Assembly (NCBI GenBank): GCA_049303575.1
Contig: JBAQNH010000002.1
Coordinates: forward strand, 444,541-508,540
DNA length: 64,000 nt
Direction: 5' to 3'
DNA from: Microgenomates group bacterium
GTDB lineage: Bacteria > Patescibacteriota > Microgenomatia > UBA1400 > MFAQ01
The notes beneath the pieces were generated by a model that did not search any database, was not told where the DNA came from, and saw only the letters and a list, made by a program, of their open reading frames with translations. The position numbers were made by a program, and so were the translations under genes. Below, piece by piece: positions 89 to 24,852 of the stretch; within the stretch, counting starts at the first letter, position 1; each line of letters starts with the position of its first letter.

Positions 89-1969
89 ATGTGTGGAATT
101 GCTGGAAAACTCTATTTTGCAAAAGACAAAGAAGTCACTGTTTCTCAGGTAGAGAAAATGACCGAGTCAATTAAACACAGGGGGCCGGATGATGATGGTG
201 TATACATTTCCCCAGACAAAACAGTAGGCCTAGGTCACAGAAGACTTTCCATAATTGATCTCTCACCATTGGGTCATCAGCCGATGAATTATCTAAATAG
301 ATACTGGATTGTATTCAATGGCGAAATTTACAATTACCTAGATGAAAAATCCAAACTAGAAAAGTTTGGATACAATTTTTCCTCTCATTCAGACACTGAA
401 GTAATCATGGCACTATATGACAAGTATGGTTTCAAATGCCTCGATCATTTAAGGGGGATGTTTTCTTTTGCAATCTATGACGAGAAAGAAAAAACAATAT
501 TTTGTGCTAGAGATAGGGTAGGAAAGAAACCATTTAAATACTACACAGACGACAATGTGTTTATTTTTGCCTCTGAACTGAAAGCTATCCTTACTCAAAA
601 AGAATACAAAAAGGAACCAGATTTTGAAGCGATTTATCATTATCTTACTCTTCAATATGTTCCTTCTCCTCTAACTGGTTTTGTTGGAATAAAGAAGCTA
701 GAACCCGCTCATTACCTTTTTATAGATATAAAAACAAGAAAATTAATCAAAAGAAGATACTGGAAACTTAACTACAAAAATAAACTAAATCTTAGTGAGA
801 CAGAGTGGAAAAAGAGGATAATCAGTAAACTCAGGGAATCAGTAAAAATTAGGATGCTAGCTTCTGATGTCCCTGTCGGGGCATTTCTTTCAGGAGGAAC
901 TGACTCAAGTGCAATTGTCGCTATGATGAGTAGTATAAGTAATGCGCCTGTCAAGACATACACAATCAGTTTTGATGAAGAAGAATTTGATGAATCAAAA
1001 TATGCAGAAATGATTTCGAAAGAATTTCATACAGATCACACAATCTTTTCAGTAAAACCTGACGCTATTAGAATACTGCCTTTATTAGTCAAACAATATG
1101 AAGAGCCCTATGCTGACAGCAGTGCTCTACCAACATATTATTTGTCGAAGTTGACAAGAAAAGGGGTTACCGTTGCTCTTAATGGAGACGGGGGAGACGA
1201 AAACTTCGGTGGATATGAACGCTACTCTATCCAGAAAATTGCTCTTTTCCTTGAAAAATTTGGTGTCCTAAATACTCTATTTTTCAAACCAATATCTCGA
1301 ATGATCTTCGAAATAATACCTACTGTTTTTACCGAGAGACTTGCAAGATTATTTTGCATGTTGAATTGGGATTATCGAGAACGGTTCGTGGGATTTTCAG
1401 CTTATTTTACTGAAAAAAACAAATCTCATTTATATAAAAACAAACCTAACCTAAATACCTATAAATATATGTCAAGATTTTTCAATCAATCAAAATTTGT
1501 CGACAAACTTGACAACACAATGTATGGAGATTTTTCGAGCTACTTGCCAGAATGCCTTCTGTCTAAAGTAGATATTGCCACCATGTCAGTCTCGTTAGAA
1601 GGAAGATCACCATTCCTTGACCATGAATTTCTTGAATTAACGGCACAAATTCCAAACAAGCTAAAAATTAAAGGTATAAATCAATTAAAACACATTCTAA
1701 AAGAATCCTTTAGAGGATTAATCCCAGATGAGGTCATGGACAGACCAAAAAGAGGTTTTTCGGTACCTATTCAAAAATGGTTTAAAAATGATTTAAACAA
1801 TTATATTAGGAACATATTACTTTCCAAGAAGTCGAAAACGTCCACTTTGTTCGATCAAAACTACATCAGAGAAATGATAGATAATCACACCAATGGAAAA
1901 GAAAACTATGGTCACAAACTTTGGGCACTATTGACCCTAGAATTATGGTTTAGAGAATATTTTTCATGA
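89..1969 (+). CDS. asnB: Asparagine synthetase B-like glutamine amidotransferase (WbpS-type, likely sugar-acid amidation)
   Basis: N-terminal MCGIAG, where Cys2 is the class-II GATase nucleophile. SGGTDSS PP-loop at ~aa 268. Length 626 aa. GGAGG RBS at ~72. Confidence 0.85.
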   Translation: MCGIAGKLYFAKDKEVTVSQVEKMTESIKHRGPDDDGVYISPDKTVGLGHRRLSIIDLSPLGHQPMNYLNRYWIVFNGEIYNYLDEKSKLEKFGYNFSSHSDTEVIMALYDKYGFKCLDHLRGMFSFAIYDEKEKTIFCARDRVGKKPFKYYTDDNVFIFASELKAILTQKEYKKEPDFEAIYHYLTLQYVPSPLTGFVGIKKLEPAHYLFIDIKTRKLIKRRYWKLNYKNKLNLSETEWKKRIISKLRESVKIRMLASDVPVGAFLSGGTDSSAIVAMMSSISNAPVKTYTISFDEEEFDESKYAEMISKEFHTDHTIFSVKPDAIRILPLLVKQYEEPYADSSALPTYYLSKLTRKGVTVALNGDGGDENFGGYERYSIQKIALFLEKFGVLNTLFFKPISRMIFEIIPTVFTERLARLFCMLNWDYRERFVGFSAYFTEKNKSHLYKNKPNLNTYKYMSRFFNQSKFVDKLDNTMYGDFSSYLPECLLSKVDIATMSVSLEGRSPFLDHEFLELTAQIPNKLKIKGINQLKHILKESFRGLIPDEVMDRPKRGFSVPIQKWFKNDLNNYIRNILLSKKSKTSTLFDQNYIREMIDNHTNGKENYGHKLWALLTLELWFREYFS

Positions 1970-3036
1970 AACTATCACATTTCAAATTTTTATCCGACCC
2001 AATCGACAATAGTGTTCTAAAGCTAACAATATTAAAACAAGTCAAAGACGAAATTGTTGATGGAATATTACTTGGTAAAAGTTGCTGGTACCCTGTCATT
2101 GACGGTGTTCCCAGGATGTTAACAGCTCAATCAAAAATTGAACTACTCCAACGAAAAACTTCATTTTTAAATAAATACAAAAACAAACTTAATCCAAAAA
2201 TAATTACTGAATGGAAACAAAATATCAGGGAAACAAAAAATAAATCACCATTTGAAATACATCAACAAAAAACCGCAGACAGTTTTGCGTACGAATGGAA
2301 GAATATTTATCAAGAAAACTCATTCGAGAAAAATAATTTTTTTCATTTTCTAACACCATTTATAAAAGAGAATGATTTTAACGGAAAAATAACTGTAGAT
2401 ATTGGTTGTGGTTCTGGAAGATTTACCAAGTGGGCGGCACTAGGAGGCGCCAAGGTGGCATTTGGGGTCGATCTTGGAGATAGTGTCGAAGTTGCTTATG
2501 AGATGACGAAAACCTATGGAAATGTCGCCATAATACAGGCCGATATATATGCCCTTCCTCTAAACAGAGTAATAGATATTGCTTACAGTATCGGAGTACT
2601 TCATCACATACCAAAACCAAAACTAGGTTTCTTAAAACTAATCAAAGCGCTTAAGAAAAATGGGAAAATGCTTATTTGGGTATATAGCCGTCGTCACAAC
2701 AATAGGGCAATATATTTGTATGAACCTTTAAGGGCAATTAGTCGACACATTCCCAAACCAATTTTGTACAAGCTGTGTTACATACCGGCTTCTATTGTTC
2801 ACTTGTGGAATTTACTTTGTAAATTGTTTAAGTGGAAAAAAATGCCCTTTTTCTACTACGAAAATTTTTCTTTCAATATGAAGTTAAATGATGCATTTGA
2901 TGTACTGGCAACTCCAAAGAGCAATTATTATTATTCGGAAGAGATTGAAAATTGGTTCAAAGAAGCAAAGCTCAAAAGCATAAAATCATTTGAACATCCG
3001 GAAGCAGGGATTACTTGTATTGGAACATATGTCTAA
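1966..3036 (+). CDS. Class I SAM-dependent methyltransferase with N-terminal Trm112-like module
   Basis: CWYPVIDGVPRML resembles the Trm112/UPF0434 Y-P-I-x-DG-I-P-x-LL motif. VDIGCGSGRFT is motif I. ATGA start/stop overlap with the asnB-like gene. Confidence 0.75.
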   Translation: MKLSHFKFLSDPIDNSVLKLTILKQVKDEIVDGILLGKSCWYPVIDGVPRMLTAQSKIELLQRKTSFLNKYKNKLNPKIITEWKQNIRETKNKSPFEIHQQKTADSFAYEWKNIYQENSFEKNNFFHFLTPFIKENDFNGKITVDIGCGSGRFTKWAALGGAKVAFGVDLGDSVEVAYEMTKTYGNVAIIQADIYALPLNRVIDIAYSIGVLHHIPKPKLGFLKLIKALKKNGKMLIWVYSRRHNNRAIYLYEPLRAISRHIPKPILYKLCYIPASIVHLWNLLCKLFKWKKMPFFYYENFSFNMKLNDAFDVLATPKSNYYYSEEIENWFKEAKLKSIKSFEHPEAGITCIGTYV

Positions 3037-4117
3037 AAAAGTAATAGTTCATTTAATTCAATCGTTAGATAGTGGGGGGTGTGAAAACATGCTTCTACGG
3101 ACGTTGCCACTCATGAAGAAATTCGATCATGTAATAATCACTCTAAACAAAAGAGGAAATCTTGCTGATAAATTTGAGGGAAAAGGAGTCCGAGTTGTAA
3201 ATATCAATCAGAAGAGTCTGGTTGATTTATTCTCATATCGTCGATTAAAAATTAAGATAAAACAATTAAAACCAAATTTAATTATTACTTATTTGTTTCA
3301 TGCAGATTTGATTGGAAGATTGTATCTCCAGTCAATTTCTAAAATAAAGGTTGTCCCATTTTTACGAACAACATACAATCATAAAAATTATTGGCAAGCC
3401 AGGTTATTTGAAAAGCTTACCAAAGGATTGGTTTATGAATATCTTGCAAACTCAGAAGCAGTCAAAGATTATTATGTTAATCAGATAGGAGTCAAAAAAA
3501 ATAATATTACTGTGATTCCAAACGGTATTGATATAGATTATTACAATAGTATTCCAAAAGATCTTACACTTAGGAAGAATATGGGTATCAAACTATCTGA
3601 TACTGTCATAATTTGTGTGGCAAACCTACATGTTAATAAAGGGCACAAATATCTACTAGAAGCCTTTGAGTTGTTATATAAAACGAACAAGAATATTAAA
3701 CTATTACTAGTTGGGGATGGTGTAGAAAAGGAAAATCTCTTGAATCAAATATATAGTTATCATTCAAAAAATTATATTCTCTTTTTAGGAAATAGAAATG
3801 ATGTTCCTTTGCTTCTAAAAATATCAGATATATTTGTTCTTCCAACATTATTTGAAGGAATGAGTAATGCTATCTTAGAAGCGATGGCAGTAGGTTTACC
3901 TGTTATTTCAACCAAGATTCCTGAAAATATTTCGATTTTGGGAGCTAACGATTTAGTAGAATCGGAATCGAGTGAATCTATTTACCAAAAATTATTCCAG
4001 TATCTTTCAGGAGTAAGTTTATCAAATATGATTATAAAACAAAAGAAAATTATTAAATCAAATTTTGATCTCTCAATAGTATCCAAGGATTTTGAAAATT
4101 ATTTACAAGGGAAATGA
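3029..4117 (+). CDS. Glycosyltransferase family 4
   Basis: C-terminal FEGMSNAILEAMAVGLPVISTKIPE is the GT4 EX7E motif. The track ORF starts at 2990; the internal ATG at 3029 removes the overlap with the upstream gene. Confidence 0.8.
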   Translation: MSKKVIVHLIQSLDSGGCENMLLRTLPLMKKFDHVIITLNKRGNLADKFEGKGVRVVNINQKSLVDLFSYRRLKIKIKQLKPNLIITYLFHADLIGRLYLQSISKIKVVPFLRTTYNHKNYWQARLFEKLTKGLVYEYLANSEAVKDYYVNQIGVKKNNITVIPNGIDIDYYNSIPKDLTLRKNMGIKLSDTVIICVANLHVNKGHKYLLEAFELLYKTNKNIKLLLVGDGVEKENLLNQIYSYHSKNYILFLGNRNDVPLLLKISDIFVLPTLFEGMSNAILEAMAVGLPVISTKIPENISILGANDLVESESSESIYQKLFQYLSGVSLSNMIIKQKKIIKSNFDLSIVSKDFENYLQGK

Positions 4118-4845
4118 AACCGACATATATTTTTAGAGTTGATGACATCTGTCCGACAATGAATTGGAAAAACTTTGATCGGCTTGAAGAGATATTTGAT
4201 AAATATAATATAAAACCTATTGTAGGAATAATCCCAGACAATAAAGATACCAAATTACATGTTAATAATCCAAATATTGAATATTGGAAAAGAATGAAAT
4301 TGCTTGTAACAAAGGGGTGGGTAATTGCCCAACACGGTTATCAACACCAATATATTAATAAGGAACCTGGCATGTTAGGTATTACTAATCATAGTGAATT
4401 TTCAAAAATAAAATATTCTGAGCAATATAAGAAAATTTCATCAGGTAAAAAAATATTAGAAAAAAAATTAGGAATAAAAATAAAATGGTGGATGGCACCA
4501 TCTCACAGTTTTGATGAAACCACGTGTAAGGTATTAGTAGATCTCAAATTCAAATATATTACCGATGGAATAGCCCTTTATCCGTATATAAGAAATGGAT
4601 TAATTTGGGTACCACAACAATTATGGAAGCCTGCTAAAAAATTATTTGGAGTCTGGACGATTTGTATACATCCAAACTCAGAGAATGATATGACTTTGTC
4701 CACAATTGAACGTTTTATCGTTAACAACATGATAGGAAATTCAGATATTGACTTGTTAATTCGATATTCAATATTTAATTATCTATATTATATATATTGG
4801 AAAATAATCCATATTATGTCAAGAATTTATGAATTACATAGATAA
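4114..4845 (+). CDS. DUF2334-like putative polysaccharide deacetylase
   Basis: N-terminal FRVDDICP, and HGYQH in the middle, match the DUF2334 pattern from memory. ATGA overlap with the upstream GT. Confidence 0.5.
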   Translation: MKPTYIFRVDDICPTMNWKNFDRLEEIFDKYNIKPIVGIIPDNKDTKLHVNNPNIEYWKRMKLLVTKGWVIAQHGYQHQYINKEPGMLGITNHSEFSKIKYSEQYKKISSGKKILEKKLGIKIKWWMAPSHSFDETTCKVLVDLKFKYITDGIALYPYIRNGLIWVPQQLWKPAKKLFGVWTICIHPNSENDMTLSTIERFIVNNMIGNSDIDLLIRYSIFNYLYYIYWKIIHIMSRIYELHR

Positions 4846-5548
4846 TACATTTCGATATACCAACGCGAGTATTTACGACAGGAGGTCTATAAAACCAATT
4901 GAAAAATATATTAAGTCAATTTGGGATCCAATATTAATCAATACACTTAGAAAGAATATCTCACCGAATGATATTATATGCGATTTAGGTTCTGGAACAT
5001 TTGAATATACACAATATATGGGAATGGCAAAAGAAATATTTGCAGTAGAAATTAACAAGAAAATGATTGATGGAGGAACGAATAAAATTAAACATATTAG
5101 CAATAAAGTAAACATCCTTTGTGAAAACGCGCTTTCTAGTAGTATTGCAAATAAATCTTGTTCAATAGTTTGGATCATAGGATTGTTAGAATATGTTGAC
5201 TTGCATAAAATATTTGATGAAATAGGTCGTGTTAGTAAAAATAAGACGAAGTTATTTATCCAATTTCCTAATCTATTTCATCCATATAATTTTGGTATTA
5301 ATATAATTTATAAAATACTTGGTATACCAATAAAAAAATATCATACATTGTCAGAAGTGAAAACAATCGCACGTCAAAATGGATTTATTCTTAAAAAAAC
5401 AACGAGTAGAGGAATATTTCTACTAGTACCAGAATCAGTTCAAGACAAGCTAATTTGGCTTTGGAAAATACTTGAAAAGGTTGTAAAACCTATACAATCT
5501 ATATTTCCATTAGGAATCAACGTATTCTGTGAGTTTGAGAAAGGATGA
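4829..5548 (+). CDS. Class I SAM-dependent methyltransferase
   Basis: ICDLGSGTFEY is a motif I variant, followed by an acidic residue; a WIIGLLEYV motif II-like segment follows. Confidence 0.6.
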   Translation: MNYIDNTFRYTNASIYDRRSIKPIEKYIKSIWDPILINTLRKNISPNDIICDLGSGTFEYTQYMGMAKEIFAVEINKKMIDGGTNKIKHISNKVNILCENALSSSIANKSCSIVWIIGLLEYVDLHKIFDEIGRVSKNKTKLFIQFPNLFHPYNFGINIIYKILGIPIKKYHTLSEVKTIARQNGFILKKTTSRGIFLLVPESVQDKLIWLWKILEKVVKPIQSIFPLGINVFCEFEKG

Positions 5549-6623
5549 GACTCGACCATTGTTTGGAGATTTGCCTTATATCATGATTTGCACAAACGTA
5601 TTTATAAGCGTTTGATGATTTGGTTTTATATTCTCCTGAATTTCTAAGAAGACGATCAACCTGCTTAATAAATAATCCAAAATCATTATTTGAAAAATAT
5701 CCAAGGTTATATGTAGAAATGAAATTATCGGGGTTAACATTAAGTGATACAACAGGAGTTTTTCCAACACATGCCTGAAGATATACGTTTGGGAATCCTT
5801 CAAATTTAGATGTTCCAACTAATAGTTTAGCTTTATTAAAATACGTTTGTATTTTATCGAACGGAACACTTTCAACAAATTTAAGATTGTTAATATATTT
5901 AGATTCATTATAGATTGTGTTCCAAAGTATACGATTTGATGATTTTGGCATTATCATAACAAACTTATTATCAGGTAGTAATCTACATAATTGTAAAAAT
6001 AAATTTGGTTGTTTTACTTCTCTTGCTGATCCAACCCACAATATATATTCACCCTTTGCCTTGATTGAATTTTCAATATTAATACCATTCCTTATTACAA
6101 TAGAATTTTTATTGTGAAATTTTTTTAGGTCACTTTTTTGCTGTTTGTTTTGAACAATTACGATATCCGCATTTATTAATCCGTATCTATAGACCTGTCC
6201 AAAAAAATATCCCATTAACCTAATTTTTTCATTCGTACAGTCAACGCTACTGGCGGAACGGAATATAAAACGCTTTCCATATATTTTGCAGAATAATGCA
6301 ATTAGTCCTATTTCAAACCCTGCTGAAGATGAAATGAATATATCTGAATCTGCCTTTACAAGAGATTTCCACAATACAAAAGGAACGGCAAGAATATTAA
6401 AAATATTCTTTTTCAATGAAATAGATTTTATTATTTCGATATTCTTCTTCTTTTGATTTACAGTGCCAAAATCACCAACTATAAATTTAATCTTAAAGTT
6501 TTTGTTAGTACTTAATATTTCAGAAATTTGACCAAGTTGCGATTCCGTCCCACCAATTGAAACCGTCGAATCATTCGAAAAATATGAAAACGAAAATAAA
6601 TTTACGAAGCAAATACTTGTCAT
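5517..6623 (-). CDS. Glycosyltransferase family 4
   Basis: SKFEGFPNVYLQACVGKTPVVS is the GT4 E-x7-E region. Last gene of a 10-gene minus-strand operon. Confidence 0.75.
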   Translation of the reverse strand: MTSICFVNLFSFSYFSNDSTVSIGGTESQLGQISEILSTNKNFKIKFIVGDFGTVNQKKKNIEIIKSISLKKNIFNILAVPFVLWKSLVKADSDIFISSSAGFEIGLIALFCKIYGKRFIFRSASSVDCTNEKIRLMGYFFGQVYRYGLINADIVIVQNKQQKSDLKKFHNKNSIVIRNGINIENSIKAKGEYILWVGSAREVKQPNLFLQLCRLLPDNKFVMIMPKSSNRILWNTIYNESKYINNLKFVESVPFDKIQTYFNKAKLLVGTSKFEGFPNVYLQACVGKTPVVSLNVNPDNFISTYNLGYFSNNDFGLFIKQVDRLLRNSGEYKTKSSNAYKYVCANHDIRQISKQWSSLILSQTHRIR

Positions 6624-7378
6624 TTCTTAAGTATTGTAACTATATACGGAGACCACCATTTACAATCTCTAAATGAAATATTTAAGAGACGAGATAACCA
6701 ATCTATAATAATTTGAAATAAATATCCAATTCTTAATAACCATATATTTCCAGAAAACAGCCCAAAGTTAATTCCACCAACATAATCGTTAAATATAATT
6801 TTTAGTTTATATTCTTTTGAAATGTTTTCAAAATATTTAAGGTTCATTACTTCATCGTTGTGAATATTTAAAACTCTTCGATCAAGTATTGTTTGAATAT
6901 ATTTATTAATTCCGTTTAAATTGGGTACAATAATAATTATTAATCCTCTGGGCTTTGTTAAATTTACGTGAATTTTTATAATATCATCTAACATTTTTCC
7001 TCTAAAGTGCTCTATGAAACCTGCTGAAAAAACGACATCGTACTGTATATCATTTTTATACTTGAGAATATTTGATTTGATTAAAGTCGATTTAATATTT
7101 AGATAGTCCAGATTCCTTTTTGAGATTTCTATTGCATTATTGGTATAGTCAAGCCCGTATACTTGATATCCAAATACTGTATGAAAATAATGCATCCAAC
7201 TTCCTGGTGCACAACCAATTTCAAAAAATTCAATTTTTTTCGATTTTGATAATTTATCAATAAATATATTATTTAATCGTAAAAACGGTAAGCTATGTAA
7301 ATTTTCAGTAATTGGAAGCCTTCTTTCTCTTTTATATAACCGATTCCAATATGATTTTGAAGTCATTTCTTCCTTCAT
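6620..7378 (-). CDS. Class I SAM-dependent methyltransferase
   Basis: FFEIGCAPGSWMHYF matches motif I. The gene overlaps its neighbour in the minus-strand operon. Confidence 0.65.
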   Translation of the reverse strand: MKEEMTSKSYWNRLYKRERRLPITENLHSLPFLRLNNIFIDKLSKSKKIEFFEIGCAPGSWMHYFHTVFGYQVYGLDYTNNAIEISKRNLDYLNIKSTLIKSNILKYKNDIQYDVVFSAGFIEHFRGKMLDDIIKIHVNLTKPRGLIIIIVPNLNGINKYIQTILDRRVLNIHNDEVMNLKYFENISKEYKLKIIFNDYVGGINFGLFSGNIWLLRIGYLFQIIIDWLSRLLNISFRDCKWWSPYIVTILKK

Positions 7379-7397
7379 AAGGATAAATTTATTAGAA

Positions 7398-8246
7398 TCA
7401 TTTTTTAAAAAATAGTATCTGATGGCAACCTAAATTATCTGAACTAATAATTTTCTTAACAAAAAATCCTTTGTTGCTAAAATAGTTAATTAATTCGTCA
7501 ACAGAGGCGTATTCGTACGGATAACCGCCAAGCCAATCTTTGATATCTGTCGTAAAAAACATTCCTCTATTGTTGTAGTTTTTGATGTATAAAAATGGAT
7601 TCCTCAAGGTCAGAATGTATCCAAAAACAAACCATATATAGTAAAGATACTCAATAATTTTTTTACCAAACCAACCAGAAGAATTATATGTTTTTTTTAT
7701 CTTAAGCCATAAATCTGATGAACCTGAAAACAATGCACTCAATCCCCGGTTTTTGTTATATATAGCTAATATCAAATAACTATTTTTTTTACATATTTTA
7801 ATAATATTGTTAAAGGCTTGATACATATCTCCGGTGTGATGAAGAACACCCCATGAATAGACAATGTCGAATTTTCCCAACGAATTGACGAATTTTTGAT
7901 TCAATATAGAACCATGTTTTACAAGCCAATTAATGGGATTATCCTCCTGTTGTTTAAGACGATTTACACACTTGATAGAATATTTATCGATATCAACACT
8001 TAGCAGCTTTGCAACCCCAAAACGGTAAGCTGCAAATGAAAACAAACCGCTTCCACATCCAATGTCAATAAATGACTTGTTTTTAAGCTGTGACTTAGAT
8101 ATGAGATCCAACATTGAATTTTCAGCTTGTATGATTTTTTTTGGTGATACTTTATTCAGGTATTCTTGCCAGTTTTCGCCAAAACTAAAATGATCTTTAT
8201 CCTTGTATGAATTTTCATATAATAAATGGTGATCTCTTTTTTTCAT
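7398..8246 (-). CDS. Class I SAM-dependent methyltransferase
   Basis: FIDIGCGSGLFSFAA is motif I; VDID and VYSWGVLHH follow downstream. Confidence 0.75.
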   Translation of the reverse strand: MKKRDHHLLYENSYKDKDHFSFGENWQEYLNKVSPKKIIQAENSMLDLISKSQLKNKSFIDIGCGSGLFSFAAYRFGVAKLLSVDIDKYSIKCVNRLKQQEDNPINWLVKHGSILNQKFVNSLGKFDIVYSWGVLHHTGDMYQAFNNIIKICKKNSYLILAIYNKNRGLSALFSGSSDLWLKIKKTYNSSGWFGKKIIEYLYYIWFVFGYILTLRNPFLYIKNYNNRGMFFTTDIKDWLGGYPYEYASVDELINYFSNKGFFVKKIISSDNLGCHQILFFKK

Positions 8247-8262
8247 GGGAAGTAAAAACTAT

Positions 8263-14997: not shown

Positions 14998-15081
14998 GGA
15001 CTTATTGTATTTTAGTCTATATTTTCCTCATCTACACAGCTATGAGGAATATATAAATTTGAAAAGCTATAATAAAACCAG

Positions 15082-17833: not shown

Positions 17834-18576
17834 TCCAACTAACCGACGAAGAGATTATCAACCGTTTCAATCTAAATTCCAAAGATAAAATCGTTGATAT
17901 TGGTGGAAGTATGCGTCAGCACGACAATCTGAATATTGATACTTTAGTTGATATTATCAGGCCGGAAGAAGCCCCCTATGGTCCGTCACCGCTTAAAGCA
18001 AAAAACTTCGTTAAATGTGACTTTACTAAACAAAAACTTCCTTTCCTCGATAAACAATTTGACTTTTGTATTTGTACTCACACCATAGAAGATCTCAGCA
18101 ACCCATTTTTCCTTTTGGATGAGATGTCTAGAATTGCCAAACGTGGATATATTTCGACGCCTTCGATGGGAAAAGATATGGTCTTTTCTCACTTGGATTA
18201 CACCAACTGGCTAACGGGAAGCAGGCGCGTTCCTGGTGACGGCCACCACAAGTGGTTTGTTGTTGATCAAAAGGGTGGAATCACCTTAATCCCCAAAAAC
18301 TATCCAATTCTCTATTCCAGCCATTTTAATTTTGTTGGCTGGTCTGGTGAAACAGAAATGCAATATTACTGGGAAAAACAAATCAATTACAAAGAAATAA
18401 ACGATTTGAATATCCACAAACTTATTGATTTTTATCAAAACTATGTCGATAAAAACAAGAAAAAACTAAAAAAATCTTTGGTTGTTATTTTTCTAGACTC
18501 TCCCTTTCATGTTATCAAAGCTCTCATTAAACTTATTCTTAGAAGGGGAAAAGGTTTCGGATATCGTCGAACTTAA
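17830..18576 (+). CDS. Putative class I SAM-dependent methyltransferase
   Basis: IVDIGGS (motif I-like), FDFCICTHTIEDLSNP and MSRIAKRGYIS are present. The gene is wedged between gmd and rmd with ATGA overlap. Confidence 0.45.
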   Translation: MIQLTDEEIINRFNLNSKDKIVDIGGSMRQHDNLNIDTLVDIIRPEEAPYGPSPLKAKNFVKCDFTKQKLPFLDKQFDFCICTHTIEDLSNPFFLLDEMSRIAKRGYISTPSMGKDMVFSHLDYTNWLTGSRRVPGDGHHKWFVVDQKGGITLIPKNYPILYSSHFNFVGWSGETEMQYYWEKQINYKEINDLNIHKLIDFYQNYVDKNKKKLKKSLVVIFLDSPFHVIKALIKLILRRGKGFGYRRT

Positions 18577-18599: not shown

Positions 18600-19538
18600 A
18601 TGAAAGAAATTCTAATTACAGGCAGCGAAGGCTTTGCCGGCCAACATCTTTGGAGAGAGCTGAAAAATAATGAGTACGATGTTTTTGGCACAACTCTGAA
18701 TGCTCCGGAAACCGGACTTCCAGAAAATGTTTACGTTTGCGATATTCAAAAACAAGATAACTTGTTCAAATTGATTTCCGAGATAAAACCAGAGGCTATT
18801 TTCCATCTAGCCGCTCAACCAAAACCAGGGCTTTCTTTCAATATTCCCCAAAAAACATTCGAGATCAATACCATTGGCACGTTGAATTTATTGGAATCAG
18901 TTAGAGGCATTCCCAACTACCATCCAAGAATTATTATGATAGGAACGTCGGAAGAACACGGTGTTGTCCATTCAGAAAAACTTCCCATTACCGAAGAAAC
19001 TCCTCTAAATCCCATTAATCCTTATTCTATTAGCAAAACAGCAAACTGGTTTTTAGCCAGAGAATATGTTCAGTCTTTTAATTTTGATATCGTTTATGCC
19101 ACTCCCTTTAACCACACCGGACCGGGACAATCTCTTGGATTTATTGCACCCGACATTGCTTCACAAATTGCCGAAATTGAAAAAGGAATAAAAGAACCTG
19201 TTTTGTTGACGGGTGATCTTTCCTCAAAAAGAGACATCAGTGACGTTCGAGATGTTGTACGTGCATACAGACTTCTCATGGAAAAGGGGAAAACAGGAGA
19301 GCGTTACATCATTTGTTCGGGAAAAAGTGTGTCGATGAGTGAGATAGTATCAAAATTAATTTCACTATCAAAAGTCACCGTTGATCACAAGATTGACCCC
19401 ACTCGCTTTAGACCTTCTGATATACCAGATCTTTACGGTAGTCACGAAAAAATAACCCAAACAACCAGTTGGATACCTGAAATCTCTCTAGAAAAAACTC
19501 TTCAAGATCTCTTGGACTGGTATCGTACAAAAGGGTAA
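18600..19538 (+). CDS. rmd: GDP-4-dehydro-6-deoxy-D-mannose reductase (Rmd-like; GDP-D-rhamnose or GDP-6-deoxy-talose synthase)
   Basis: ITGSEGFAGQHL, FHLAAQ, NPYSISKTANWFLAREY and ATPFNHTGPGQS track remembered Pseudomonas Rmd (TGLSGFVGKHL, NPYAVSKLAAE, ARPFNHIGPGQ). Confidence 0.75.
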   Translation: MKEILITGSEGFAGQHLWRELKNNEYDVFGTTLNAPETGLPENVYVCDIQKQDNLFKLISEIKPEAIFHLAAQPKPGLSFNIPQKTFEINTIGTLNLLESVRGIPNYHPRIIMIGTSEEHGVVHSEKLPITEETPLNPINPYSISKTANWFLAREYVQSFNFDIVYATPFNHTGPGQSLGFIAPDIASQIAEIEKGIKEPVLLTGDLSSKRDISDVRDVVRAYRLLMEKGKTGERYIICSGKSVSMSEIVSKLISLSKVTVDHKIDPTRFRPSDIPDLYGSHEKITQTTSWIPEISLEKTLQDLLDWYRTKG

Positions 19539-19547: not shown

Positions 19548-20801
19548 GTGGAAAGTATAAAAAAACTTCTCTTGTCACAGACAATTAAGGACACCTTGAT
19601 CAGTTTCATAGGGTTAGGTTTCGCCGCAGTGGTTGGTTTTGTATTCACCATTATTCTCGCCCGCACCCTCGGTCCTGAACAATTTGGGGTCTTTTCTGCT
19701 GTTGTTGCTCTTGTCGCCATTGTCTATAGTCTTGGTGATCTAGGCATCGCCTCTGCACTTATAAACTTTATTCCCAAACTCAAAGATCTACGACCGATAC
19801 TCATCGGTACCTCTTTTTGGTTTGAGATTATCATCGGTATTTTTATTCTTGTCTTGTTTTCCGTTTTTGGAATTTTTCATCAGCAAATCATTCCCGGCTC
19901 TTTGCTTTCTCAGCTACTTATCGCCGGAATTCTCGCCGTTAACTATCTTTTTATTAACTATGTTCAGGGAATCTTTACTGCCGAGAGACGTTTCTTAGGT
20001 TACTCATTTATCCAAATTATTGATGCTGGAGTAAAAATTGTCATTGTTTTGTTTCTATTATCTTTGAGTCGTCTATCTATCGAAACCGCACTCCTCGCCA
20101 ATGTCGTTTCTACAATCATTGCCTTGTTAATTACTTTTGGTAAGGACTTTCTTGGAATAAAACCTTCGTACAATAAGGAAATTCTTGAAAAGCTTTTTCA
20201 TTTTGCCAAATGGATTGCCGTCACCCGATTCTTTTCCGTCTTTATCTCTCGTATTGATATTATTCTTCTCAATCTACTTTCTAGTAGTTTTCAGGCCGGT
20301 ATTTTTGCCGCCGCTAATCGCATTACTCTCCTTTTTTCGCTTTTGGTTTCCAGTTTGGGCGCGGTCATCAACCCTCGTTTTTCCGGTTTCGATTCAAAAG
20401 ACAAAGTTATTTCTTACATCAAAAAGCTTCTTGGACTAATTGTTCTAGTTACCGGGTTGATGCTCATATCTGCTTTACTTGCGAAGCCAATCATTAATAT
20501 TGTCTTCGGAGACAAGTTTGTTGCCGCCATTCCCGTATTCCAGGCCTTAACTGTGGCTATGATCCCCTTTATTTTTTCTATGGCCACCACCTCGGCATTA
20601 ATATATACCTACAATCAAACAAAGTTTATTGCCCAGTTAACAGCCTTTCAGGTCATTCTTATGGTAATAATCGAATTGATTCTCATTCCCTCTCTCGGCT
20701 CTTTCGCCCCCCCCATTGCCCTAGGAATTACCAACACCCTTGCACTTCTTATTACTGGAACCAAACTTTTTCGATTACTTACCAAAAATGAAGACAAATA
20801 A
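19548..20801 (+). CDS. Wzx-like polysaccharide flippase (MOP superfamily)
   Basis: Twelve predicted TM helices across 417 aa with no soluble domain. Confidence 0.6.
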   Translation: MESIKKLLLSQTIKDTLISFIGLGFAAVVGFVFTIILARTLGPEQFGVFSAVVALVAIVYSLGDLGIASALINFIPKLKDLRPILIGTSFWFEIIIGIFILVLFSVFGIFHQQIIPGSLLSQLLIAGILAVNYLFINYVQGIFTAERRFLGYSFIQIIDAGVKIVIVLFLLSLSRLSIETALLANVVSTIIALLITFGKDFLGIKPSYNKEILEKLFHFAKWIAVTRFFSVFISRIDIILLNLLSSSFQAGIFAAANRITLLFSLLVSSLGAVINPRFSGFDSKDKVISYIKKLLGLIVLVTGLMLISALLAKPIINIVFGDKFVAAIPVFQALTVAMIPFIFSMATTSALIYTYNQTKFIAQLTAFQVILMVIIELILIPSLGSFAPPIALGITNTLALLITGTKLFRLLTKNEDK

Positions 20802-21624
20802 AATAGTTGTTCATTGCATAGTTAAAAATGAAGAAAACTTCATTTGGTACGCACTTCAATCTGTTCTTCCTTTTGTTGACAAAATTATGATTTGGGATAC
20901 CGGCTCGGAGGACAAAACCGTGGAAATTATCAAATCCATGGACTCTCCCAAGATAGATTTTGTCGAAAAAGGATCGGTCGACTCGGAAACACACACAAAA
21001 TTGAGAGGAGAGATGTTAGATAAAACAGACAAACAAAAATACCGCTGGCTTTTGATTCTTGATGGTGATGAAATTTGGGGCAAAAAAGAAATAATCAAAA
21101 TGATCGAGATTGCCAACAAGAAAGAACCATCAGCAATTGTCGTGAGAACTATCAACCTGGTTGGTGACATCTACCATAAACTACCGGAGTCGTCAGGAAA
21201 ATACGAAATTGCTGGTCAAAAAGGACACCTTTCAATTAGACTTATCGATCTATCGTTAAAAAATCTTAAGGTAATGAACCCTCATGGCGGTCAGACATAC
21301 ACCACCTCCGGAACCGCCATTCAAAATCTGCCGATTAAAGAATTATTCTTCTCGGAAGAAATCTATTTTTTTCACACCACCCACCTTGAAAGATCTTCTC
21401 TTGATAGTAAAACTCTGAAACGCAGTTTCAAGCGGAAATATGAAATAGGGGAAAAAATAAAAACAAACTCATTACCAGAAATCTTCTTTCAAAAACATCC
21501 TTCAATTGTTCCGGAAGTAACCAAGCCAATGAGTGTGGTTATCTTTCTACGTTGCCTCCTGGAAACCATCCCTAAACGCCTCAAGAGAAAATTTTTCCCA
21601 TCCAAAAAATCCGGCTATATATGA
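20788..21624 (+). CDS. GT2-like glycosyltransferase
   Basis: HCIVKNEENFI...DKIMIWDTGSEDKTVEII matches the GT2 pattern (v.NEe..l...l.s.....DEiiVvDtGStD.T.ei). The track ORF starts at 20740; the ATG at 20788 avoids the overlap. Confidence 0.55.
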   Translation: MKTNKIVVHCIVKNEENFIWYALQSVLPFVDKIMIWDTGSEDKTVEIIKSMDSPKIDFVEKGSVDSETHTKLRGEMLDKTDKQKYRWLLILDGDEIWGKKEIIKMIEIANKKEPSAIVVRTINLVGDIYHKLPESSGKYEIAGQKGHLSIRLIDLSLKNLKVMNPHGGQTYTTSGTAIQNLPIKELFFSEEIYFFHTTHLERSSLDSKTLKRSFKRKYEIGEKIKTNSLPEIFFQKHPSIVPEVTKPMSVVIFLRCLLETIPKRLKRKFFPSKKSGYI

Positions 21625-22382
21625 TTGGTCAAGAAAAATACTATCAGTTGGCAAAAGAAGCCAGTTCACAGATTAAAAATCACCCCGGTCTTTTAACAAT
21701 CCAAAGATTTGCCTCAAAATCTAAAAAAATTCTCGATGTGGGTTGTGGTGAAGGAACTCGTCTCAATTTGTTCTCCGGAAAAGCAAAAAATGGAACCGGT
21801 GTGGATGTCAGCTCTTTTGCTCTTCACAAAGCAAACAAGCAGTACCCTCGCCATAACTTTGTTCTAGTCAAAGATGAGGAGCTCCCTTTCACTTCCAACA
21901 CATTTGACTTGGTTTATACCACGTTTGTTCTCGAACACACCCAAAATCAAGAACTATTTATCAAAGAAATGATTAGAGTAACCAGGGAAGATGGATTGAT
22001 TGCCATTCTCTGTCCCAATTATGGTTCTCCAAATCGCCGTTCACCAGTATCCACAGAAACGCCATTAAAAAAACTGTTACTTGGTTTTCTTCAGGATATT
22101 ATTCCATCGGGAAAATCGTCCTTGTCATTTACCAAGGTTACCCCAAAAAAAATCTTCAAGAACCCCGACGACGACACTACTTGTGAGCCATACTTACTCA
22201 AACTTCAAAGATATGTTTCTCATTTTTCAAATATTAAAATTGAAAAATCCTCTTCACTTTGGGAGATTGACGACCAGGCAAACAGTATTCATCAAAGATT
22301 GTTTAAATATCTTGGAACACAAAACATTTTTCCTTTTAAATACTATGGCCCACAGCTCTTTATTGTTTTAAGAAAGATCTAG
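21621..22382 (+). CDS. Class I SAM-dependent methyltransferase (type 11-like)
   Basis: ILDVGCGEGTRLN is motif I; VDVS and FDLVYTTFVLEH follow downstream. Confidence 0.7.
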   Translation: MIGQEKYYQLAKEASSQIKNHPGLLTIQRFASKSKKILDVGCGEGTRLNLFSGKAKNGTGVDVSSFALHKANKQYPRHNFVLVKDEELPFTSNTFDLVYTTFVLEHTQNQELFIKEMIRVTREDGLIAILCPNYGSPNRRSPVSTETPLKKLLLGFLQDIIPSGKSSLSFTKVTPKKIFKNPDDDTTCEPYLLKLQRYVSHFSNIKIEKSSSLWEIDDQANSIHQRLFKYLGTQNIFPFKYYGPQLFIVLRKI

Positions 22383-23074
22383 TCTTCCAGGTTATATTTC
22401 AAAATACACCACAAAGCCCAGACACCATCTTTCCAATTGATTTTTTTTCCTTGGTCGTAGTTTCTTCCCGAGTAACTAACCCCGATTTCATAAACCCGGC
22501 ACTGCATTCTCGCAATCTTAGCTGTAAACTCCGGTTCCATACCAAAACGATTTTCTTGGAGATTTAGATTGTCGGCAACCTTGCGGGTGAACATCTTATA
22601 CCCCGTTTCCATGTCGGTGAGGTTGATGTTGGTCATCATATTTGATACCAGTGTCAGAAATTTGTTCCCTACCATGTGCCAGTAGTTGAGAACTCGGTGG
22701 GGTCTGTCACCCAGGAAACGAGAGCCGAAAACAACATCTGCCTTTTTGTCTAGAATTGGCTGAAGAAGTAGGGGATACTCCTTCGGGTTGTACTCCAGGT
22801 CGGCGTCTTGGATGATTATGATGTCTCCTGTTATTTCCTTTAGTCCTCGTCTTATGGCCGACCCCTTTCCCTGGTTTTTCTTTTGGAAAAATACTTTTAC
22901 TTTCTTACTTCTTATTTTTTTCAATATTTGAGTCGTACCATCCTTCGAACCATCATCCACCACAATTATCTCCTTGGCTAGTTTTCCAATATTTGCTTTC
23001 AAAACTGCCGAAATAGCCTTTTTGATAAAAGCCTTTTCGTTGTACACCGGCATAATAACTGATAGCTTTTTCAT
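22379..23074 (-). CDS. Polyprenyl-phosphate glycosyltransferase (GT2, DPM1/ArnC/GtrB-like)
   Basis: LSVIMPVYNEK, IIVVDDGSKDGT and IIIQDADLEYNP match the layout of Dpm1-type polyprenol-P-sugar synthases. Confidence 0.8.
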   Translation of the reverse strand: MKKLSVIMPVYNEKAFIKKAISAVLKANIGKLAKEIIVVDDGSKDGTTQILKKIRSKKVKVFFQKKNQGKGSAIRRGLKEITGDIIIIQDADLEYNPKEYPLLLQPILDKKADVVFGSRFLGDRPHRVLNYWHMVGNKFLTLVSNMMTNINLTDMETGYKMFTRKVADNLNLQENRFGMEPEFTAKIARMQCRVYEIGVSYSGRNYDQGKKINWKDGVWALWCILKYNLED

Positions 23075-23099
23075 TCTGGCTCTAGTTTACAATAAGATT

Positions 23100-24185
23100 A
23101 TGAAACTAGCGTTTGTAAATTTCTATTCCGGAATTGCCCAAAGGGGAGGGGAGACCTATGTTAATTCATTAGCCGAAAAACTTTCTCGAAGACATCAGGT
23201 CTATGTTTTCCAGGCGGGGCCGCAAAAAGAAAAAGGATTATATCGGATTGAGGAAATAAAAATTTCCTTTAATCCAAACCATTCTCATTCAAAACTTCCG
23301 GTAACTCACATACTCAAACGTCTCTTTCTAGACTATTTTCACCTCAAAGAACTGATATTTACGATAAAGCTCTTACCCAGACTTTGGAAAATCAAACCGG
23401 ATATTATCTTTCCCCAAAATTCAGGATGGGAAGTATTGTTACTTCGAATGTTTTCTACCATTATTCGCTCCAAGGTAATTGTCGCCGGACAATCCGGTCC
23501 CGGTTGGAACGACAGGATTAATCTTTATGTACGCCCGGATATTTTTGTAGCACTAACCAAAAACCAGGCTAATTGGGCCCAAAGAATCACCCCCTGGAAA
23601 GATCAAAAAATCGTCGTGATACCCAATGGTGTTGATTTGGAAAGATTTTTACCCAAAGGAAAGAAACAAGCCATCAGTCTTTCAAAACCAATAGTACTAG
23701 TAGTAGGTGCCGCCATAAAAAGCAAAAGAATTAAAGACACCATTAGGGCTGTTGCCAGGCTAAAAAATACTTCATTGCTCGTGGCTGGTACCGGTCCTCT
23801 GGAAAAAGATGAAGACCTCCTTGGAAAGAAATTATTGGGAAGTCGATATGAAAGAATTAAGGTAGCTCATGAGGACATGCCCAATATCTATCGCAGCGTT
23901 GATACTTTTACTCTATGTTCCGACAGTAGTGAAGCTTTCGGTATTGTCTACCTCGAAGCTCTCGCATCCGGTCTTCCCTGTGTGGTTACGGATGACGCCA
24001 GCCGTCGGGAAATTCTTAATGATGCCGGCATTTATGTGAAAGATCCAGAAGACCAAAAAGAGTACGCCGACAAGTTAAAGGAAGCCCTTCTCCAAAAATC
24101 ACCCGAAAAATATCTTAAACGGGCAGAAAAATATTCCTGGGACAAAATCGCCGACAAGTATGAAAAAATCCTGGACAAAAAATAG
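23100..24185 (+). CDS. Glycosyltransferase family 4
   Basis: MKLAFVNFYSGIAQRGGETYV at the N-terminus; SEAFGIVYLEALASGLPCVVTD is EX7E. The track ORF starts at 22974, but the ATG at 23100 lies clear of the divergent neighbour. Confidence 0.75.
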   Translation: MKLAFVNFYSGIAQRGGETYVNSLAEKLSRRHQVYVFQAGPQKEKGLYRIEEIKISFNPNHSHSKLPVTHILKRLFLDYFHLKELIFTIKLLPRLWKIKPDIIFPQNSGWEVLLLRMFSTIIRSKVIVAGQSGPGWNDRINLYVRPDIFVALTKNQANWAQRITPWKDQKIVVIPNGVDLERFLPKGKKQAISLSKPIVLVVGAAIKSKRIKDTIRAVARLKNTSLLVAGTGPLEKDEDLLGKKLLGSRYERIKVAHEDMPNIYRSVDTFTLCSDSSEAFGIVYLEALASGLPCVVTDDASRREILNDAGIYVKDPEDQKEYADKLKEALLQKSPEKYLKRAEKYSWDKIADKYEKILDKK

Positions 24186-24852
24186 TCATCAAATCCTGGA
24201 GCAGGCGACTAATCTCGATAATTACAATCGCTGGATTATTTCCATCTTCAAACAATATTTCGGAAATAATATTCTTGAAGTTGGTTCAGGACTTGGTGGT
24301 CTCTCTCAGTATTTACCCCACGTAAATATCACCCTATCTGATGTTCGCACCGATTATTTCAAACATTTAAAGACTCGGTTTGATTACGCAACAGTCAAAT
24401 TAAATATTGAAAAAGGATCACTAGATAAACTAATTAATTCTTACGACACCATATTTTCCTCCAATGTTTTTGAGCATCTTCAAGACGATCGGAAAGCCAT
24501 CAAAAACTGCTTCTCACTCTTAGAGCCGAGAGGAAAATTGTTGCTCTTTGTTCCTGCTCGTCCTGAAATAATAGGACAACTCGACAAAGCCATGGGTCAT
24601 TATCGTCGGTACACCAAAGAAGAATTATCAAAGAAGGCTATCAGCGCAGGATTCAAAATAATCAAAATTAAATACGTTAATTTTCCGGGCTATTTCACTT
24701 GGTGGTTAAGAGGCAGGTTGCCTGCAAAAACAAAATCCGATGGTTTTCTGGCCAAAGCATTCGATACTCTTATCGTTCCACTTTTATATCTAGAAAAACA
24801 CATCACCATTCCTTTTGGCCAAAGTTTGATGTTGGTTACCCAAAAACCTTGA
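24160..24852 (+). CDS. Class I SAM-dependent methyltransferase
   Basis: ILEVGSGLGGLSQYL is motif I, LSDV follows, and FSSNVFEHLQDD is motif II/III. Confidence 0.65.
   Translation: MKKSWTKNSHQILEQATNLDNYNRWIISIFKQYFGNNILEVGSGLGGLSQYLPHVNITLSDVRTDYFKHLKTRFDYATVKLNIEKGSLDKLINSYDTIFSSNVFEHLQDDRKAIKNCFSLLEPRGKLLLFVPARPEIIGQLDKAMGHYRRYTKEELSKKAISAGFKIIKIKYVNFPGYFTWWLRGRLPAKTKSDGFLAKAFDTLIVPLLYLEKHITIPFGQSLMLVTQKP

Follow-up and report, generated by a model that had tools for sequence, protein, structure and literature searches.

Why would a bacterium crowd eight methyltransferase genes between the glycosyltransferase genes of a single locus, and what might the encoded enzymes methylate? The question is raised by a 64,000-nucleotide stretch of DNA from a Microgenomates group bacterium (contig JBAQNH010000002.1, positions 444,541 to 508,540), which is called the window throughout. 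An initial annotation had noted eight S-adenosylmethionine (SAM)-dependent methyltransferases, here numbered MT1 to MT8, between window positions 1966 and 24852, and had predicted that they serve one heavily O-methylated glycan. With a probability of roughly two in three, these genes belong to a composite cell-surface glycan island of a Woesebacteria-like Microgenomates bacterium of the candidate phyla radiation (CPR), made up of two units that differ in their history. Carrying MT1-MT5 in two convergent operons, unit A (89-16632) is probably a laterally shared, serotype-like cassette of low guanine-plus-cytosine (GC) content. Unit B (16808 onward), which carries MT6-MT8, would be the conserved envelope-glycan core of the lineage, with the order MT6-Wzx-GT2-(MT7)-GT4 (GT2 and GT4 being glycosyltransferase families). 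The gmd and rmd genes for GDP-D-rhamnose appear to have been placed around MT6 within this core. Methylated surface glycans are the best reading of the locus, and their chemistry is predicted.

Eight methyltransferases in a glycan island

The island spans about 45 kb (89-44263), and the division and cell wall (dcw) cluster lies a short way downstream, after glmS. All eight open reading frames (ORFs) were recovered from a six-frame ORF list exactly where the initial annotation had placed them, and every encoded protein scores above a Pfam gathering threshold for class-I SAM methyltransferases. The plus strand carries MT1 (1966-3036; Methyltransf_11, 48 bits), MT2 (4829-5548; Methyltransf_11, 37.8 bits), MT6 (17830-18576; Methyltransf_11, 30.5 bits, matching only profile positions 44-90, the second half of the model), MT7 (21621-22382; Methyltransf_11, 68 bits), and MT8 (24160-24852; Methyltransf_12, 42 bits). 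The minus strand carries MT3 (6620-7378; Methyltransf_25, 39.5 bits), MT4 (7398-8246; Methyltransf_31, 52 bits, PrmA-like), and MT5 (9558-10349), a member of the TylF/Methyltransf_24 branch (PF05711, 41 bits; cut-off 23 bits). A domain search thus assigns generic class-I models (Methyltransf_11/12/23/25/31) to seven of the enzymes and the sugar methyltransferase family TylF to MT5.

Some of the finer details need adjustment. The sequence hhDhGCGxG of motif I, attributed to six of the ORFs, is literally present in MT1, MT4, and MT7, but MT2, MT3, and MT8 have looser glycine-rich loops (DLGSGT, EIGCAPG, and EVGSGLG, respectively). At the N terminus of MT1, the resemblance to Trm112 is weak: the NCBIfam model Trm112_arch gives 29.8 bits (cut-off 77; E 4.8e-7), residues 1-53 match the PDB chain 6f5z_C at E 4.5e-5, and the JGI annotation places MT1 homologues in the YbaR/Trm112 family, although the zinc-binding cysteines are absent from MT1. 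As had been stated, no target-recognition domain of a DNA or RNA methyltransferase was found in any of the eight. Pairwise identity among the enzymes is 29% or less, and therefore they are not recent duplicates. Rather, each represents a separate, unrelated lineage of cytoplasmic class-I SAM enzymes. None has an N-terminal signal sequence, and hydropathy profiles of MT1-MT4 contain weak segments only (1.2-1.5), from which no membrane association is claimed. In single-sequence searches of the PDB, MT1-MT4 yielded matches to the SAM-binding core or nothing, with no PDB match for MT2.

Could these simply be housekeeping enzymes for quinones, rRNA, tRNA, or proteins that happen to lie among glycan genes? 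Weak, sub-threshold similarity to UbiE, UbiG, CmoB, PrmA, and FtsJ models can be detected, and some homologues bear automatic JGI names such as 'UbiE'. However, none of the eight reaches a curated NCBIfam cut-off for the families tested (UbiE, UbiG, MenG, CmoB, PrmA, RlmE, and TlyA). The best scores fall far below the cut-offs (UbiG 44 against 103 bits, MenG/UbiE 48 against 158, CmoB 38 against 209, and PrmA 38 against 183), and the matches are confined to the SAM-binding core. Furthermore, in other CPR genomes the homologues of MT1, MT4, MT5, MT6, and MT7 are surrounded by genes for glycosyltransferases and flippases, so that glycan-gene neighbors are kept across CPR classes, and a genuine housekeeping methyltransferase, RsmH, is encoded elsewhere in the window (48226-49161). 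The housekeeping explanation is extremely improbable and is excluded here; these are methyltransferases of a glycan locus.

The density of these genes had been regarded as unusual. There are eight in 22.9 kb, or one per 2.9 kb (0.35 per kb), and they make up 8 of the 24 genes between 1966 and 24852, compared with 1 of 38 (rsmH in the dcw cluster) in the remaining window (Fisher p = 0.0014). This value is high and lies at the top of the distribution, but it is not unique, since related loci carry between one and seven methyltransferase genes in some 20 kb. Loci of 20 kb around MT6 homologues have one to six (six in L009, five each in L002 and L007), and the sister lineage represented by the 75-kb metagenome contig L054 has seven in 21.5 kb. 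Among 30 loci of at least 15 kb that carry the sugar-activation module of cassette A, described below, the median is two, the maximum seven (L054), and the mean 0.11 per kb, which are probably undercounts given that these genes were counted by BLAST closure. The high density is therefore the extreme of a trait that is common in this clade and in the CPR.

Evidence for two units with different histories

One sign that the island is composite is its base composition. GC content is 0.309 between 1966 and 16632, compared with 0.417 in the remaining island and 0.421 in the housekeeping part of the window. A second line of evidence comes from 19 loci surrounding MT6 homologues in Woesebacteria, Amesbacteria, and Patescibacteria genomes, to which every window protein was compared. 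For the genes between 1966 and 16632, these 19 loci contain no homologue at all.

Cassette A begins on the plus strand with an operon of the order AsnB-MT1-GT4-deacetylase-MT2. Its first gene (89-1969) encodes an AsnB-like glutamine amidotransferase (Pfam Asn_synthase, 316 bits; NCBIfam XrtA/PEP-CTERM amidotransferase, 575 bits, under the cut-off of 817) and its stop codon overlaps the start of MT1. This AsnB is 60-63% identical to the proteins encoded before MT1 homologues in the Moranbacteria locus L107 and in L108, a contig of the Saccharimonadia type, and 45-51% identical to the AsnB of the Woesebacteria core, and it can therefore be assigned to the cassette. The MT1 family is 56-81% identical across CPR classes. 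A GT4 enzyme (2990-4117, plus strand; Glycos_transf_1, 108 bits) is its conserved partner, with homologues of 48-69% identity directly after MT1 in L054, L107, and L108. The deacetylase-like protein (4114-4845, plus strand; DUF2334, 165 bits; Polysacc_deac_1, 44 bits) has no homologue in the comparison loci.

The convergent minus-strand operon reads Wzx-SIS-Rpe-NT/kinase-HAD-MT5-432 aa-MT4-MT3-GT4, where NT/kinase denotes a 522-amino-acid fusion of a nucleotidyltransferase and a kinase. In both operons, start and stop codons overlap. The Wzx-type flippase (13663-14997; Polysacc_synt, 65 bits) has 11 hydrophobic segments, and homologues of 45-59% identity lie directly upstream of the SIS gene in L025 and L054. 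The 432-amino-acid protein (8263-9561; Glyco_trans_1_2, 8e-5, below cut-off) is a recurrent companion of the sugar-activation genes, with homologues in 14-15 of the loci that carry them. The terminal GT4 gene (5517-6623; Glycos_transf_1, 43 bits) has homologues of 35-36% identity in L054 and L107, and MT4 has homologues of 45-52% identity in L025, L054, L107, and L108. A polytopic membrane protein of 516 amino acids follows on the plus strand (15082-16632). It has 9-11 hydrophobic segments and no match in Pfam or NCBIfam, is 90% identical in L054, and is a candidate Wzy-like polymerase. The idea that it is a divergent version of the gene that precedes MT6 in relatives was considered and rejected: the genes at that position are of several kinds, and a profile gave no useful information. 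Overall, methyltransferases account for 5 of the 16 genes of the cassette.

Comparison with L054 reveals how this cassette varies. The order there is AsnB-MT1-GT4-[middle]-TylF-HAD-NT/kinase-Rpe-SIS-Wzx-516 aa-gmd-MT6-rmd-Wzx-GT2-MT7, and identity to the window drops steeply toward the middle of the cassette. Values are 98.5% for gmd, 94% for rmd, 91% for MT6, and 84.5% for the NT/kinase, falling to 59% for the cassette A Wzx, 57% for TylF, 48.5% for MT4, and 35% for a GT4. Three L054 genes lack a counterpart in the window, and the deacetylase, MT2, and MT3 of the window lack one in L054; homologues of MT2 and MT3, which form the strain-variable part of the cassette, were likewise not found in the 19 relative loci or in the 83 loci carrying the sugar-activation module. 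More distant lineages share parts of the same arrangement. L107 carries AsnB (63%), MT1 (56%), GT4 (54%), and MT4 (51%), followed by HAD, NT/kinase (66%), Rpe, and SIS, and L108 carries AsnB-MT1-GT4-MT4. This four-gene block, which corresponds to window positions 89-8246, is kept at 45-73% identity in L107 (8052-13073), L108 (8055-13068), and L054 (17753-21563). Judging from these sequences, the pattern is that of a laterally exchanged, diversifying surface-antigen cassette. From base composition and the comparison with the 19 loci, MT1-MT5 are placed in a variable low-GC insert, and MT6, with MT7 as an accessory, in the conserved core of the lineage.

As a side observation, proteins 73-84% identical to those of the window cassette are found in a metagenome-assembled genome (MAG) labeled 'Flavobacterium sp.', and several records titled 'uncultured Gammaproteobacteria bacterium' carry MT6 loci of the Woesebacteria type. 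Such MAG records, which involve the loci L015, L016, L017, L019, L020, and L022 and the proteins P0123 and P0254, probably reflect mislabeled taxonomy or bin contamination.

The neighbors of MT1 and MT2 bear on what these enzymes attach methyl groups to. Genes for UDP-sugar dehydrogenases lie upstream of the AsnB-MT1 block in L107 and L108, and together with the AsnB-MT1-GT4-MT4 block they hint at amidation and methylation of uronic acids. This leads to an alternative in which several of the methyltransferases make no sugar O-methyl ethers at all: MT2 might N-methylate a de-N-acetylated amino sugar, MT1 might esterify or otherwise modify a uronic acid or uronamide, or a phospho-substituent might be methylated. 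The deacetylase and MT2 genes overlap (4114-4845 with 4829-5548), as do those for AsnB and MT1 (89-1969 with 1966-3036), and the latter adjacency is kept in three CPR classes. The pairing of NodB and NodS in Nod-factor synthesis offers a precedent for a deacetylase acting together with an N-methyltransferase, and the generic class-I folds are uninformative regarding the acceptor atom. Yet the acceptor assignments in this proposal rest on gene position, and similarity to NodS is insignificant (16.8 bits for MT8, none for MT2). The proposal is rather unlikely, and MT5 is the only one of the eight for which family analogy points to O-methylation.

Unit B opens with gmd (16808-17833, plus strand), whose product is a GDP-mannose 4,6-dehydratase (Pfam GDP_Man_Dehyd, 326 bits; TIGR01472, 314 bits, under the cut-off of 415). 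After MT6 comes rmd (18600-19538, plus strand) for GDP-4-keto-6-deoxy-D-mannose reductase, which matches the solved Rmd of Aneurinibacillus (PDB 2pk3) at 2.7e-77 and PDB 6x3b at 3.9e-46. The pair had thus been named correctly. The position of a methyltransferase inside it had also been taken as the mark of a methylated rhamnose, and this is where the relatives disagree. An MT6 homologue is present in all 19 relative loci (43-67% identity), accompanied by homologues of the core GT2 (20740-21624, plus strand) in 16 (33-50% identity), of the core flippase, Wzx-B (19548-20801, plus strand; Polysacc_synt_3, 76 bits), next to MT6 in 15 (27-45%), of the GT4 at 22974-24185 (plus strand) in 14, of a 426-amino-acid membrane protein in 10, and of MT7 in 4. 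By contrast, gmd and rmd lie within 10 kb of MT6 in a single one of the 19 loci, and there the order is MT6-gmd-rmd (in L004, PMT_2-MT6-gmd-rmd-Wzx). Neither gene was found within 10 kb of MT6 in L002 or L006, and the sugar-precursor genes beside MT6 vary by locus, with FdtA and DegT in L004 and L006. Outside these 19 loci, the sister L054 keeps the order gmd-MT6-rmd, and its MT7 is 83% identical to that of the window. The constant partners of MT6 are therefore Wzx and GT2 rather than gmd and rmd, and the methyl-rhamnose proposal is unsupported by conserved linkage. The comparisons do not support MT6 as a rhamnose-specific enzyme, although a methyl-rhamnose role is possible in this strain and in L054.

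The remaining core genes are a 231-amino-acid GT2 on the minus strand (22379-23074; Glycos_transf_2, 128 bits), a candidate polyprenyl-phosphate sugar synthase that might feed GT-C enzymes, and MT8, which overlaps the GT4 stop codon and for which no homologue was found in the 19 relative loci.

What, then, might MT6 do? The family comprises 128 matches from Candidatus Woesebacteria and Patescibacteria MAGs, all of full length and 50-88% identical. Its invariant residues include D23-x-G25-G26-S27-M28-x-Q30 (an atypical D-x-G-G-S-M-x-Q loop), D41, D64, C82-x-H84, and H139-H140-K141-W142. In an AlphaFold model (pLDDT 87.8), the protein adopts a class-I methyltransferase fold in which D23, G25, and G26 follow strand 1, D41 follows strand 2, and D64 follows strand 3, the usual positions for SAM contacts. 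Foldseek returned class-I methyltransferases alone (74 matches at E<=1e-3), which cover approximately the first 120 residues with TM-scores of 0.30-0.38. The C-terminal half is a family-specific domain and ends in a hydrophobic helix (residues 218-236) that suggests membrane anchoring.

These features could be taken to mean that MT6 is a conserved membrane-associated methyltransferase whose substrate is either a protein or a lipid (a carrier lipid or one of the membrane), or that it is a structural partner of the flippase or GT-C machinery. MT6 is far more conserved (43-67%, and up to 88%) than its neighbors Wzx and GT2, and in 9 of the 19 loci it is preceded by a gene for a protein of approximately 430-555 amino acids, whose end overlaps the MT6 start in most of these loci. 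That gene encodes a PMT_2 GT-C enzyme in L004 and L005, with upstream genes heterogeneous overall, and the fold matches of MT6 include phosphoethanolamine and phosphatidylethanolamine N-methyltransferases. However, these matches are low-scoring and equally include the sugar O-methyltransferase RebM, and the constant neighbors of MT6 are glycan genes. A purely structural role also fits poorly with the SAM-contact residues: they are invariant, and MT6 is therefore probably catalytic. A function outside glycan tailoring thus seems unlikely for this enzyme.

The assembly genes bear on whether one glycan or two are made. The island as a whole encodes two Wzx proteins, one Wzy_C protein, two PMT_2 GT-C enzymes, many GT2 and GT4 enzymes, an acetyltransferase, ManC, GalE, and one initiating phosphoglycosyl transferase. 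The two Polysacc_synt proteins, the Wzy_C protein (33485-34840), and the Bac_transf protein (41668-42318) are those expected for Wzx/Wzy-dependent assembly, and no Wzm/Wzt ABC transporter was detected among the window ORFs scanned with the ABC2_membrane, ABC_tran, and Wzt_C models. Since SAM is cytoplasmic, the enzymes lack signal peptides, and each unit ends with a Wzx gene, methylation most likely precedes export. Their most likely substrates in the cytoplasm would be nucleotide sugars or lipid-linked repeat units that have yet to be flipped, with MT1-MT4 probably tailoring the lipid-linked unit. Substrates, O-regiochemistry, and step order are in all cases inferred.

The original proposal, in its fullest form, holds that all eight enzymes decorate a single heavily O-methylated glycan and that MT6 makes O-methyl-D-rhamnose, possibly as a cap. 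S-layer and O-antigen systems provide known examples of methyl-rhamnose caps (PMC2943079; PMC7820976). Furthermore, the eight genes do lie in one contiguous island with a single initiating transferase, and MT6 sits immediately between gmd and rmd, which overlap it or lie close to it, in an order that L054 retains. Of this proposal, the methylated surface glycan stands as the best reading, but the notion of one glycan is opposed by the two flippases, the step in GC from 0.31 to 0.42, and the separate histories of the two gene sets, and the rhamnose assignment by the sparse and variable linkage described above. The analogy with caps is also unsupported, given that caps are terminators of ABC-transporter systems and there is no Wzm/Wzt transporter through which a cap could be recognized. 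With Wzx and Wzy genes in its place, methyl groups would recur in each repeat unit and there would be no terminal cap. A role as a methyl cap is therefore unlikely, and the fuller proposal is quite improbable. The interpretation preferred here remains that of two units of separate origin within one island.

A candidate sugar-activation module

Clues to the chemistry of cassette A come from four adjacent genes on the minus strand, with MT5 as the last gene of this sugar-activation operon. The first encodes a SIS-domain sugar-phosphate isomerase of the HxlB type (13119-13673; TIGR03127, 196 bits against 160), and the second encodes an enzyme of the ribulose-phosphate 3-epimerase family, Rpe (12428-13117; TIGR01163, 221 bits against 212.6; an AlsE-like model gives 182 bits, under its cut-off of 271). 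Next are the NT/kinase (10870-12438), which has an N-terminal nucleotidyltransferase domain and a C-terminal APH-type kinase domain and matches LicC (PDB 1jyk) at 9e-6, and a KdsC-like HAD sugar-phosphate phosphatase (10346-10891; NCBIfam KdsC subfamily, 80 bits, under the cut-off of 107). A model of the N-terminal domain of the NT/kinase matches GalU, RmlA, MurU, and LicC, and the Pfam domains NTP_transferase and APH are detected in 18 and 13 of 21 family members, respectively.

The NT/kinase family is large, with 2378 protein homologues, the top 120 of which are 57-85% identical; those with a named source are from Moranbacteria, Gribaldobacteria, and Levybacteria. Natural fusion partners of some members are TylF (P0188), the KdsC-like phosphatase (P0200, P0235, and P0239), and a cupin (P0240). 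A metagenome scan found at least 554 NT/kinase loci, of which 80 were kept and combined with L024, L025, and L026 to give the 83 module loci, many of them on short contigs. In these, HAD (56 loci) and Rpe (49-51) adjoin the NT/kinase, SIS is present in 43-46, and the order SIS-Rpe-NT/kinase-HAD is kept in L024, L025, and L026. The commonest further neighbors are a 379-amino-acid methyltransferase (29 loci), a 331-amino-acid protein (25), the TylF family (15), and the family of the 432-amino-acid protein (15). When the analysis is limited to the 50 loci with at least 4 kb of sequence downstream of the NT/kinase, half (25) have at least one methyltransferase within 4 kb.

The commonest of the module methyltransferases, present in 29 of the 83 loci, is a protein of 375-381 amino acids that combines Methyltransf_23 with a weak C-methyltransferase tail (Methyltransf_14). 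It is seen in L024-L026, in L054 (13982-15115), and in L107 (16874-18001), but the window lacks it and has TylF in its place. Both occur together in some loci.

For MT5, the family assignment is more informative than for the other seven enzymes. MT5 is predicted to be a metal-dependent sugar O-methyltransferase of the TylF/NovP family. A profile of its family matches NovP (8e-10), MycF (9e-5), and, weakly and in part, CalS11 (E 0.0095), whereas a single-sequence search of the PDB with MT5 gave no match, so that a profile was needed to reveal the link to NovP and MycF. The predicted metal-binding residues D192, D194, D221, and D222 do not vary among 15 members of the family and align with MDGDLYES and VDDY of NovP (PDB 2wk1). 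MT5 is 47% identical to the TylF half of the TylF-NT/kinase fusion P0188 in L024. By analogy with the family, and from this fusion and adjacency to the NT/kinase, we infer a sugar hydroxyl as the acceptor.

Taken together, the four enzymes could plausibly convert a ketose phosphate into a rare sugar activated with a nucleoside diphosphate (NDP). The proposed order would be epimerization, isomerization, phosphorylation at C1, dephosphorylation, and nucleotidylation, with MT5 probably O-methylating the sugar at or near the nucleotide-sugar stage. A pathway for heptose (GmhA/GmhB) was considered for cassette A and rejected, since NCBIfam assigns the SIS protein to the HxlB type and the HAD protein to the KdsC-like group. 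Literature searches for the combination of SIS, Rpe, kinase, phosphatase, and nucleotidyltransferase, or for glycan methylation in the CPR or Woesebacteria, found nothing relevant. A tentative proposal, which falls somewhat short of an even chance, is that the HxlB-type SIS, Rpe, NT/kinase, and KdsC-like phosphatase, often joined by TylF or the 379-amino-acid methyltransferase, form an undescribed, CPR-wide nucleotide-sugar pathway. Starting from a ketose phosphate, it might make a rare and often methylated sugar, such as a pentose or a hexose of the allose or psicose type, for the surface glycans of these very small bacteria that depend on hosts, and the cassette in the window would then be one serotype of a laterally exchanged, CPR-wide methyl-sugar surface antigen.

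Several observations weigh against the overall interpretation given here and must be set beside the evidence in its favor. The kinase half of the NT/kinase has no sequence match in the PDB, and the window protein itself matches APH weakly. Rpe scores above the cut-off of the housekeeping rpe model and could simply supply pentose phosphates. TylF stands beside the module in 10 of the 50 loci with enough downstream sequence, and one TylF fusion was seen. None of the comparison loci carries a homologue of MT2, MT3, or MT8, which leaves position as the sole link of these three to glycans. Apart from MT5, the methyltransferases match known proteins in the generic SAM-binding core alone, and substrates are predictions for all eight. 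Finally, because there is a single initiating transferase in the island, both units may feed a single polymer after all.

Wider setting and comparison with known systems

Beyond MT8, the island continues with galE for UDP-glucose 4-epimerase (24853-25833, minus strand; TIGR01179, 379 bits against a cut-off of 262). The remaining part (25865-44263), predominantly on the plus strand, contains no additional methyltransferase. It encodes the 426-amino-acid polytopic protein, GT2 and GT4 enzymes, a hexapeptide acetyltransferase, the two PMT_2 GT-C enzymes (27723-29228 and 34842-36269), the Wzy_C protein, ManC (40595-41617, minus strand), and the initiating phosphoglycosyl transferase. Directly 3' of the latter is a gene for a DUF4012 protein of 640 amino acids with an N-terminal membrane anchor (42341-44263), which may serve the island in chain-length control or in export.

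Several features of the neighboring DNA were also observed. An ORF of 179 amino acids (44268-44807) matches the N-terminal domain of RecO alone and may encode a shortened RecO. Immediately 5' of glmS (45916-47640) there is a glmS ribozyme (45742-45900; Rfam RF00234, 45.6 bits; gathering score 37). The dcw cluster (47798-57932) has the order mraZ-rsmH-(102 aa)-ftsI-mraY-ftsW-murG-(279 aa)-ftsA-ftsZ, and the interval from ftsI to ftsA is without murE, murF, murD, and murC. On the minus strand, a gene for a membrane protein of the TspO/MBR family (59139-59612; 167 bits) adjoins genes for a cupin and a VanW-like protein. Genes identical to those of the window are present in sequencing run SRR28062879, and a search of the GTDB representative genomes for an exact 43-mer of the window gave no match.

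To our knowledge, there is almost no experimental information on the cell surface of CPR bacteria (Patescibacteria), which is their interface with hosts and phages. The island suggests that a Woesebacteria-like organism whose genome is probably smaller than 1 Mb (the contig has 704 kb, and a complete relative has 819 kb) devotes approximately 45 kb to surface glycans. Methylation appears to be recurrent across related loci, and part of the island acts like a swappable serotype cassette that is common to CPR classes. Tailoring methyltransferases are ordinary members of polysaccharide loci, and this locus, although crowded, is ordinary in kind. The new elements are apparently the CPR-specific MT6 family, the AsnB-MT1-GT4-MT4 block, and a sugar-activation module that appears to be undescribed. 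The value of the analysis is descriptive and hypothesis-generating, and lies in the definition of three enzyme sets: the four-enzyme module with TylF, the four-gene block, and the MT6 core family.

Four known systems offer useful points of reference. In the NDP-heptose pathway, the GmhA isomerase, the HddA or HldE kinase, the GmhB phosphatase, and the HddC nucleotidyltransferase act together, and the octose pathway of lincomycin is analogous. The window operon joins the same four roles, which is what suggests a route from ketose phosphate through aldose phosphate, aldose 1,n-bisphosphate, and aldose 1-phosphate to the NDP-sugar. Unlike the heptose enzymes, however, the window SIS protein is of the HxlB type (22.7 bits against a GmhA cut-off of 265, compared with the passing TIGR03127 score given above), the kinase is of the APH type, not the GHMP/ribokinase type, and fused to the nucleotidyltransferase, the phosphatase is of the KdsC type, and a 3-epimerase of the Rpe family is added.

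A second parallel is provided by the TylF/NovP/MycF/CalS11 family of sugar methyltransferases. MT5 exceeds the TylF gathering score, and its profile aligns with the family through the D-x-D and D-D metal motifs. CalS11, described in the PDB as a TDP-rhamnose 3'-O-methyltransferase, offers a precedent for methylating a sugar while it is still bound to its nucleotide. Yet the similarity of MT5 to these enzymes is remote, its gene lies in a CPR surface-glycan cassette and not in an antibiotic cluster, and the partner sugar pathway is different.

The third system comprises the O-methyl chain terminators, exemplified by WbdD of E. coli O8/O9a, WsaE of Geobacillus, and the common polysaccharide antigen (CPA) TET operon of Pseudomonas syringae. 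Methyl caps terminate chains in glycan pathways that depend on ABC transporters (WbdD and WsaE), and the methyltransferases are encoded among glycosyltransferases, in some cases beside D-rhamnose genes (PMC2943079; PMC7820976). The window shares the placement of methyltransferases among glycosyltransferases, and its relatives L006, L024, and L026 even carry Wzm/Wzt with a Wzt_C domain and a GT2-methyltransferase fusion. The window itself differs in having two Wzx proteins and a Wzy_C protein in place of Wzm/Wzt.

Finally, cultured bacteria possess low-GC, hypervariable O-antigen and capsule loci of the Wzx/Wzy type. Cassette A resembles them in its conserved flanks and precursor genes, its divergent middle, its low GC content, and its sharing of blocks with distant lineages. 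It differs from them in residing in a CPR bacterium with a small genome and in its unusually high content of methyltransferases.

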